Assembly (NCBI GenBank): GCA_964507665.1 | Contig: CAZDPT010000002.1 | Coordinates: 29,016-93,015, forward strand | DNA: 64,000 bases | Source of the DNA: an uncultured Candidatus Saccharibacteria bacterium | Lineage (GTDB): Bacteria > Patescibacteriota > Minisyncoccia > Minisyncoccales > CAYZYK01 | Reading direction: 5' to 3' | Shown: one piece after another, positions 20,030 through 21,726 of the stretch | How the letters are laid out: the number at the start of each line of letters is the position of its first letter | How positions within the stretch are numbered: position 1 is the stretch's first letter | Position numbers and translations under genes: made by a program | The notes under the pieces: model-generated | Seen by the model: only the letters and a program-made list of their open reading frames with translations | Told to the model about the DNA's origin: nothing | Database searches by the model: none

Positions 20030-21530
20030 TTTTGAGAGTTTGATCTTAGCTCAGGATGAACGCTAGCAACGTGGATAAGGCATGCAAGTCAAGCGGTCCG
20101 CCTTCGGGTGGACAGCGGCAAACGGGTTAGTAACACATGGATTACGAACCTCAAAGACGGGAATAACTTGCCGAAAGACAAGCTAATACCCGATGGTCCT
20201 CATATTTTACTATATGAGGTAAAGAAAGTTTTTACTTTCGCTTTGAGACCGGTCCGTGGCCTATCAGCTTGTAGGTGGGGTAATGGCTCACCTAGGCTAT
20301 GACGGGTAGGGGGCGTGAGAGCGCGGCCCCCAACAGAGACACTGAGACACGGGTCTCACTCCTACGGGAGGCAGCAGTCGAGAATCTTCGGCAATGGGCG
20401 AAAGCCTGACCGAGTGACGTTGCGTGGCCGAAGAAGCTCTGCGGAGTGTAAAGGCCTTTTGCGTAAGAAGAACCTGCTTTGCAGGTGACGTTATTACGCG
20501 AATAAGGGGGTGCTAATCACGTGCCAGCAGCAGCGGTAATACGTGATCCCCAAGCGTTATCCGGATTTATTGGGCGTAAAGCATCTGTAGGCGGCCAGGT
20601 AAGTCTTTGGTGAAAGTTCAAGGGCTCAACCTTTGAATTGCCACGGATACTACTTGGCTAGAGGGCGTTAGAGGCTGGCGGAACCGACGGTGGAGCGGTG
20701 AAATGCGTTGATATCGTCGGGAACACCGAAAGCGAAGGCAGCCAGCTGGGGCGACCCTGACGCTGAGAGATGAAAGCGTGGGTATCGAAGAGGATTAGAT
20801 ACCCTCCTAGTCCACGCTGTAAACGATGGACACTGGCTATTGGTAGTGTCGACCCTATCAGTGGCGAAGCTAACGCGTTAAGTGTCCCGCCTGGGAAGTA
20901 CGGCCGCAAGGCTAAAACTCAAAAGAATAGACGGGGACTCACACAAGCGGTGGACCATTGTGGCTTAATTCGACGATAAGCGAAGAACCTTACCAGGGCT
21001 TGACACCCGTTTGAAAATCCTCCGAAAAGAGGACTTCCACAAGGCAAACGGGCAGGTGCTGCATGGTTGTCGTCAGCTCGTATCTTGAGACGTGCCGTTA
21101 AGTCGGACAACGAGCGCAACCCTTGCTCTATGTTTTATGTGTCATAGAGGACTGCCCGAGACAATCGGGAGGAAGGTGAGGATGACGCCAAATCAGCATG
21201 GCCCTTTGATGCCCTGGGCTGCACACATGGTACAATGGCCAGTACAATGGGTTTTGCAATATCGTAAGATGGAGCTAATCCTTTAAAACTGGTCTTAGTC
21301 CGGATCGAGGGCTGCAATTCGCCCTCGTGAAGTCGGAATCGCTAGTAATCGCGGATCAGCCACGCCGCGATGAATATGTCCCTGAGTCTTGTACTCACCG
21401 CCTGTCACGTCAGAAGAGCTAGCAGTACCCGAAACTCCTGTTTCGGCAGGAACTAAGGTAAGGTTAGTAATTAGGACGAAGTCATAACAAGGCACGGGTA
21501 GGGGAACCTGTCCGTGGATCAAAATTAAAA
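20030..21530 (+). rRNA. rrs: 16S rRNA (ends +/-10 nt)
   Basis: Starts gagagtttgatcttagctcag. Internal gtgccagcagcagcggtaatac, and 3' helix 45 ggggaacctgtccgtggatca. A flanking ~25-bp processing stem pairs 19998-20022 with 21611-21635. Confidence 0.92.
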
Positions 21531-21726
21531 AATAGGTTGACTAAGGTTGAAGTCTGAAATTTGGATTTTAACCTTAAGGGAATTGGTTAAGTTACCCTTT
21601 AAGACTTGACTTATCCGAGGCAATTTCAAGCAACTAATTTCTCCCTTAAGAAGTTGAGGGTTTTTTGTTTGGATCTTGCTGATTACCTTTATTTTTGTTA
21701 AAATTTAAATAATTAAATCTAAAAGA

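Follow-up and report, generated by a model that had tools for sequence, protein, structure and literature searches.

Pairing between the Shine-Dalgarno (SD) sequence of an mRNA and the anti-SD at the 3′ end of 16S rRNA is the textbook means of start-site selection, and a large environmental clade that lacks the rRNA half of this pairing is a natural experiment. The window (the whole 64-kb stretch of DNA analysed here) raises the question of whether its 16S rRNA gene has lost the anti-SD and whether the mRNAs of the same organism still carry SD sites. A sequence-only reading had claimed, from an alignment by eye, that the gene follows the universal 3′ end through helix 45 and GGAUCA and then departs from it, with no CCUCC before the 3′ strand of the processing stem, and had asked for a covariance-model alignment. 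We ran that alignment with the Rfam model of bacterial SSU rRNA (RF00177), which matches positions 20028–21529 over its full length (model positions 1–1533) with 1398 bits. To place the 3′ end, the alignment was repeated with 21150–21720 alone; helix 45 (21493–21516) and GAUCA (21517–21521) are aligned at maximal posterior ('*'), and the model positions that hold the anti-SD (1526–1533, consensus ACCUCCUUu) fall on AAAUUAAA. The placement by eye was thus accurate to the base.

The reading was also right about CCUCC. On the plus strand CCTCC is absent from 21024 to 22612, the flanking occurrences being at 21019–21023 and at 22613; the stretch that runs from GGAUCA through the processing stem's 3′ strand to the tRNAs contains none. 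Because the stem formed by 19993–20021 and 21612–21640 encloses the gene, and no CCTCC lies inside it beyond GGAUCA, the anti-SD is not concealed further along the precursor. The anti-SD is gone from the single 16S gene of the 64-kb window, and the gene shares two features with the anti-SD-less 16S genes of Parcubacteria: a bona fide SSU with helix 45 and GGAUCA, and no CCUCC(U) in its tail. The features of the locus are as follows (L123 and L126 are two related contigs described below).

19787–19814, plus strand: promoter-like site TTGACA-16 nt-TAAAAT, by consensus match only (11/12), with the 16S 5′ end about 215 nt further downstream
19993–20021, plus strand: 5′ strand of the pre-16S processing stem, predicted by cofolding to pair near-continuously with 21612–21640; equivalent stem in L126
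20028–21521, plus strand: 16S rRNA gene to the universal GGAUCA (RF00177), the sole SSU match in the 64-kb window
21493–21516, plus strand: helix 45, CACGGGUAGG-GGAA-CCUGUCCGUG, from the covariance-model alignment
21522–21534, plus strand: A-rich tail AAAUUAAAAAAUA in place of CCUCCUUA, with no C and no G; extent as read from the gene, the mature tail perhaps being shorter or longer
21535–21541, plus strand: trailer box GGUUGAC (GUYGAY family), conserved in trailers
21542–21576, plus strand: conserved trailer hairpin (RNAalifold) whose UUGAA/UUYAA arms are invariant
21577–21603, plus strand: second trailer hairpin, predicted by cofolding; sequence not conserved in L123 or L126
21612–21640, plus strand: 3′ strand of the pre-16S processing stem (cofolding); GACUUAYYCRAGGCAA common to L123 and L126
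21643–21668, plus strand: terminator-like hairpin with T-run, directly after the processing stem; equivalent in L123 and L126
21727–21888, plus strand: tRNA-Ile(GAU) and tRNA-Ala(UGC), the usual spacer tRNAs, after the terminator-like site; the 23S gene is not directly next

Our analyses make it very probable that this is a genuine, functional 16S gene of Parcubacteria type (Patescibacteria/CPR) in which the eight anti-SD bases after GGAUCA have given way to a G/C-free, A-rich stretch, that neither an SD:anti-SD helix nor SD sites exist in this organism, and that the loss characterises the lineage and not this genome alone.

Tails of relatives and placement of the lineage

Metagenomes scanned for helix 45 of the window, exactly matched and followed by the AAA tail, yielded one contig, L123. 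The nearest retrieved relative with rRNA is L126, whose uS2 is 60% identical to that of the window and which shares the gene order rpsB-tsf-small ORF-16S and the same helix 45. Ahead of GGUUGAC the tails read AAAUUAAAAAAUA in the window, AAAUUUAAAAAA in L126 (where the A-rich tail occupies 13433–13444) and AAAAAUUUAAAAAA in L123, so that an A3-5 U2-3 A6 pattern is conserved in the window lineage. L123 and L126 also have the GGUUGAC box, the covarying hairpin, a second hairpin, the stem strand and the terminator-like hairpin with its T-run. Because both contigs carry the same A-rich tail, it is not an assembly artefact. The 16S gene of L123 is itself broken immediately 5′ of AACAAGG by non-rRNA sequence; this break, near position 1490, is probably an insertion or an intron.

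To see how far this type of 16S end extends, one genome per GTDB species was scanned with the pattern TAACAAGG-N10-GGAASSTG-N5-GGATCA followed by a base other than C, a pattern that excludes relatives retaining CCUCC. The scan returned at least 119 loci; among those listed, 109 have no CCUCC-like sequence within 20 nt and 10 carry one-base variants of the anti-SD. The window's type of helix 45 (CAYN) is present in 108 of the 109 listed anti-SD-less ends, the exception being a Cytophagales MAG, and the CACG-type 5′ arm of the window's helix 45 is common to 93 of them. Those listed loci that bear names are mostly Parcubacteria (Staskawicz-, Nealson-, Gribaldo-, Lipton-, Colwell-, Harrison-, Jorgensen-, Lloyd-, Campbell- and Nomurabacteria), with further ones assigned to Paceibacterota, Minisyncoccia, Ca. 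Microsyncoccus and Minisyncoccus archaeiphilus PMX.108. In the last of these (L020, NZ_AP038758.1), which is the type strain of the phylum Minisyncoccota and is in culture, the bases after GGAUCA read UUUAUUUAUAUUUUG and include no anti-SD, an absence that goes unmentioned in the paper describing Minisyncoccus. The bearers of such 16S genes are mostly putative episymbionts and not free-living bacteria.

The 16S gene of the window is 72–79% identical to those of the listed named relatives by BLAST, with a best value of 83% over the 3′ half, and the best named homologues of its uS2 (56–61% identity) come from Parcubacteria, Minisyncoccales, Nealsonbacteria and Paceibacterales. Judged by the type of helix 45, the trailer architecture (its hairpin is common to named loci) and the names of the uS2 homologues, and with 16S identities of no more than 79–83%, the window appears to represent a separate deep lineage of Parcubacteria-type CPR bacteria. 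Its tail sets it apart as well. The 107 other unique listed anti-SD-less tails have A or U at +1, U at +2 (91%) and +3 (93%) and no G from +1 to +5, and their information content drops beyond about +9, close to the canonical tail length; against this U-rich WUU start, the window lineage has AAA at +1 to +3 (AAAUU... in the window).

The sequence-only reading had called complete loss of the anti-SD rare. This holds among cultured taxa: Amin et al. 2018 (PMC6107228) counted 128 taxids without the anti-SD among ~20,600, for the most part from Bacteroidetes, Mycoplasma and symbionts of insects, and saw no compensating SD, and an earlier survey (Lim et al. 2012, PMC3457768) has 15 such genomes among 1,182. 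It does not hold for Parcubacteria, where Tsurumaki et al. 2022 (RNA 28:1041, PMC9297842) detected CCTCCT in only 48% of 16S genes, with the losses of the motif and of uL1 falling largely in the same lineages. The rarity was therefore overstated, since the window falls in Parcubacteria-type CPR, for which the loss was reported in 2022. Anti-SD loss in Parcubacteria is thus already known, though briefly described; searching the literature on Shine-Dalgarno together with Parcubacteria, Patescibacteria or CPR, we found no fuller treatment than that of Tsurumaki et al. The genes described there resemble that of the window in having a normal helix 45 and GGAUCA, no CCUCCU and a presumably absent SD helix; their report gives the detection rate and the correlation with uL1, whereas replacement tails, SD statistics and the trailer are given here for the window. 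bL9 and bL25 are both present in the window, and the rplK-rplA region lies outside its 64 kb.

Other systems share parts of this condition. Bacteroidetes and Flavobacteria (Jha et al. 2021, PMC7797042; Lim et al. 2012) likewise have leaders rich in A, show no SD enrichment and score a negative SD index relative to background, but most Bacteroidetes keep the canonical sequence in their 16S rRNA and sequester it, whereas the 16S gene of the window has lost the sequence itself. Insect symbionts with tiny genomes and haemotropic mycoplasmas (Lim 2012; Amin 2018) have lost CCUCC and SD sites, with no compensating motif and in reduced genomes, as here; their phyla are unrelated, however, and their tails mostly resemble C-to-U decay (UCUCU, UUUCU), whereas the tails described here are unlike the ancestral sequence. 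Mitochondrial SSU rRNA also keeps helix 45 and lacks the anti-SD, but mitochondria are organelles with initiation factors of their own and mostly leaderless mRNAs, and their tails have no homology with that of the window. In principle the window adds little that is new beyond a further lineage, itself deeply diverged, whose A-rich tail is distinct. The existence of a cultured strain without an anti-SD, M. archaeiphilus PMX.108, makes the mature 3′ end and the mechanism of initiation open to experiment.

Gene starts without Shine-Dalgarno sites

The sequence-only reading had named seventeen genes among about 25 conserved starts said to be without a GGAGG-like motif, and Pfam agrees with all of the identities (eno, apgM, gap, pduL, ppsA, fba, rplY, rpsB, tsf, lysS, serS, hrcA, grpE, dnaK, dnaJ, ctpA and pyrG). 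For most of these genes the Pfam profile begins no more than a few residues from the ATG that was chosen, and the starts are therefore well placed. Upstream regions in the window are A/T-rich, with A at about 50% between −20 and −2 and G at frequencies of 0.04–0.19, without a peak, across −20 to −1.

SD signal was quantified with a deliberately naive pipeline, applied identically to all sets and calibrated on 50 kb of E. coli K-12, in which the longest ORFs are taken, the ViennaRNA duplex energy of positions −22 to −3 against CACCUCCUUA is computed, and internal ATGs serve as the control. In E. coli, 56–63% of starts reach ΔG ≤ −5 kcal/mol, against 20–21% of internal ATGs. The corresponding values are 13–14% of starts against 23% of internal ATGs in the window, and 14% against 25% for 399 ORFs (≥150 aa) from the 109 other listed anti-SD-less loci. 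Where one-base-variant tails (UCUCC and the like) are present (27 ORFs), SD enrichment persists at ΔG ≤ −7 kcal/mol (22% against 5%). Window starts show no SD enrichment over the internal-ATG background in the 64 kb analysed, and SD sites are thus absent from the mRNAs, matching the absent anti-SD.

The claim about the 25 starts requires one qualification: the named genes are indeed A/T-rich upstream, but 4 of 53 window starts (15463+, 40127+, 54811− and 55469−) do carry a strong SD-like motif. Such sites occur at the background rate of internal ATGs, none of the four ORFs has a Pfam or NCBIfam match, and the homologue of the 15463 ORF in another relative, L125, has only AGGAAGAG and no GGAGG. 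On these three grounds (background rate, hypothetical ORFs throughout, homologue without GGAGG) we rejected two readings of the four starts, namely a retained SD regulon and horizontal transfer. The GC content of the 15463 ORF is 0.41, compared with about 0.33 for the window, and further GGAGG motifs lie in its upstream intergenic region at 15283, 15393 and 15452; given the higher GC, horizontal transfer of this one ORF is possible.

Could the missing anti-SD be accounted for in some other way? Misassembly, pseudogene status or displacement of a CCUCC-bearing downstream exon by an intron has almost no probability: insertions are frequent in CPR rRNA genes, and both the 23S gene of the window and, just before AACAAGG, the 16S gene of L123 bear one, but the full-length model match, the intact enclosing processing stem, the lack of any CCTCC ahead of the tRNAs and the recurrence of the same architecture in two independent metagenomes effectively refute such an artefact already. 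It is highly improbable, too, that another 16S gene, one whose anti-SD is normal, lies elsewhere in the genome and that heterogeneous ribosomes serve a few SD-bearing genes. The data comprise 64 kb of the genome, and four ORFs have strong GGAGG-type sites; against this, the sites occur only at the rate of internal ATGs, the L125 homologue of the 15463 ORF has not kept its GGAGG, and a single rRNA operon is typical of CPR genomes.

We attach equally little probability to the idea that the replacement tail is a new anti-SD that pairs with a complementary A/U-rich motif in the leaders. The conservation of A3-5 U2-3 A6 in the window lineage, and of WUU and some 8–9 positions (the canonical tail length) in the other listed anti-SD-less tails, would suit this idea. 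Leaders of the window, however, bind their own tail at −1.90 kcal/mol, compared with −1.85 for shuffled sequences and −2.46 for internal-ATG controls, and the 399 ORFs of relatives bind their own tails at −2.03 kcal/mol, compared with −2.15 and −2.31 for controls. Neither the window nor the 399 ORFs show upstream enrichment of a motif that could pair with the replacement tail, and we rejected pairing with the organism's own tail, as upstream binding is no better than in shuffled and internal controls. With a tail that is A-rich and leaders that are about 50% A, no pairing is possible in the window. Lim et al. 2012 (PMC3457768) speculated that U-rich tails pair with A-rich leaders in Flavobacteria; because tail and leaders of the window are both A-rich, this is disfavoured here, and the A-rich tail speaks against U-rich replacement tails that pair with A-rich leaders. 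Also rejected as a general feature was a 13-bp A/U duplex predicted between a U-run at the 16S 5′ end (20023–20035) and the tail (21525–21538): it is not kept in L126, and among 48 relatives true leader-tail pairs show no excess of complementarity over permuted ones (−6.6 against −7.3 kcal/mol).

We return to the loss of both halves of the SD helix. Since the rRNA and mRNA partners are both missing, SD-independent initiation, which the sequence-only reading had taken to be implied, is a reasonable inference. Starts would most likely be selected through the A-rich, G/C-poor and weakly structured region around the start codon, most likely also through coupling or re-initiation where genes are tightly packed, and possibly through some leaderless or very short-leader mRNAs. 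Consistent with the first of these, the region from −30 to +30 around starts has a GC content of 0.22–0.24 and a mean 40-nt MFE of −2.1 to −2.7 kcal/mol, compared with about 0.33 and −3.4 to −4.6 kcal/mol further inside genes; the reduced structure and the A-rich sequence are confounded by base composition. Overlap or a spacing of ≤10 nt is found in 14 of 46 same-strand neighbour pairs in the window. Hexamers resembling a −10 element number 16 in the 8 positions that lie 5–12 nt from the ATG, compared with 33 in the 42 positions further upstream, and are thus about 2.5-fold denser close to the start; this signal, like that of low structure, is confounded by local A/T richness. An interval of exactly 7 nt separates TATAAT or TAAAAT from the ATG of pduL (5626–5641), of the Na+/H+ exchanger gene (23188–23205, minus strand) and of lysS (33376–33391), making these candidate leaderless transcripts. 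For annotation pipelines, SD-based start prediction is best turned off for genomes without an anti-SD.

Trailer element and layout of the rRNA genes

Downstream of the tail, the box and hairpin at 21535–21576 recur well beyond the window lineage. GTCGA occurs in 53% of the 107 unique listed anti-SD-less trailers, compared with 4.5% of shuffles, and in 96 of the 107 when one-base variants are included. The hairpin comprises 13–14 bp, and RNAalifold analysis of 21 sequences gives 14 pairs, 9 of them with compensatory changes. Box and hairpin together are found at L007, L019, L027, L029, L034, L045, L050, L054, L069, L077, L081, L083, L087, L093, L097, L104, L105, L111, L114, L123 and L126 and in the window. 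No Rfam family corresponds to the element, a search with a permissive E-value giving only chance-level matches.

The box and hairpin would most likely constitute a pre-rRNA processing signal, or possibly an antitermination-like (boxA-like) one. It is improbable that they instead stay on the mature 16S rRNA as a new 3′-terminal domain, or as a docking site that replaces the anti-SD region on the platform. The element does lie inside the processing stem, its 9 covarying pairs of 14 and its invariant arms are maintained across lineages less than 80% identical in 16S, and a stable hairpin would be expected to impede 3′-to-5′ exonucleolytic trimming. Its distance from GGAUCA, however, ranges from 10 to about 75 nt, with extra hairpins inserted in some lineages, and the GTCGA box is also present in trailers of Verrucomicrobia that have kept a UCUCC tail; because the distance varies and the box occurs beside UCUCC tails, a processing signal in the spacer fits better. 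Were the element retained, it would have a role in mRNA recruitment or subunit maturation, and this in a clade also without Era: the reader of GAUCACCUCC is mostly missing in CPR (PMC10582724).

The rRNA genes of the window are unlinked. Between the spacer tRNAs and the 23S gene (24460–28545) lie a gene for a Na+/H+ exchanger (21967–23187, minus strand) and an MscS-like gene (23430–24125). The 23S gene contains an insertion of ~1.36 kb near its 3′ end, and the whole-window Rfam 23S match stops at 27181. Within the insertion are an ORF for a LAGLIDADG endonuclease (27178–27843; Pfam E = 1.7e-45) and sub-threshold matches to group I introns at 27719–27927 and 27950–28260.

Three further features of the window concern protein-coding genes. 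Release factor RF1 is short (247–251 aa) in the window (14123–14872, minus strand), in L125 (5178–5921) and in L126 (1299–2054); its match to the prfA models begins near position 100 and the N-terminal domain 1 is missing, a truncation conserved in L125 and L126, and its gene overlaps and is co-transcribed with rpmE (L31). A cluster encoding subunits I, c, E, C and F of a V/A-type ATPase occupies 57678–61843 in this CPR-type genome. A compact glycolysis/acetate cluster (eno, apgM, gap, pduL, ackA, ppsA, pfkB and fba) extends from 681 to 11602.
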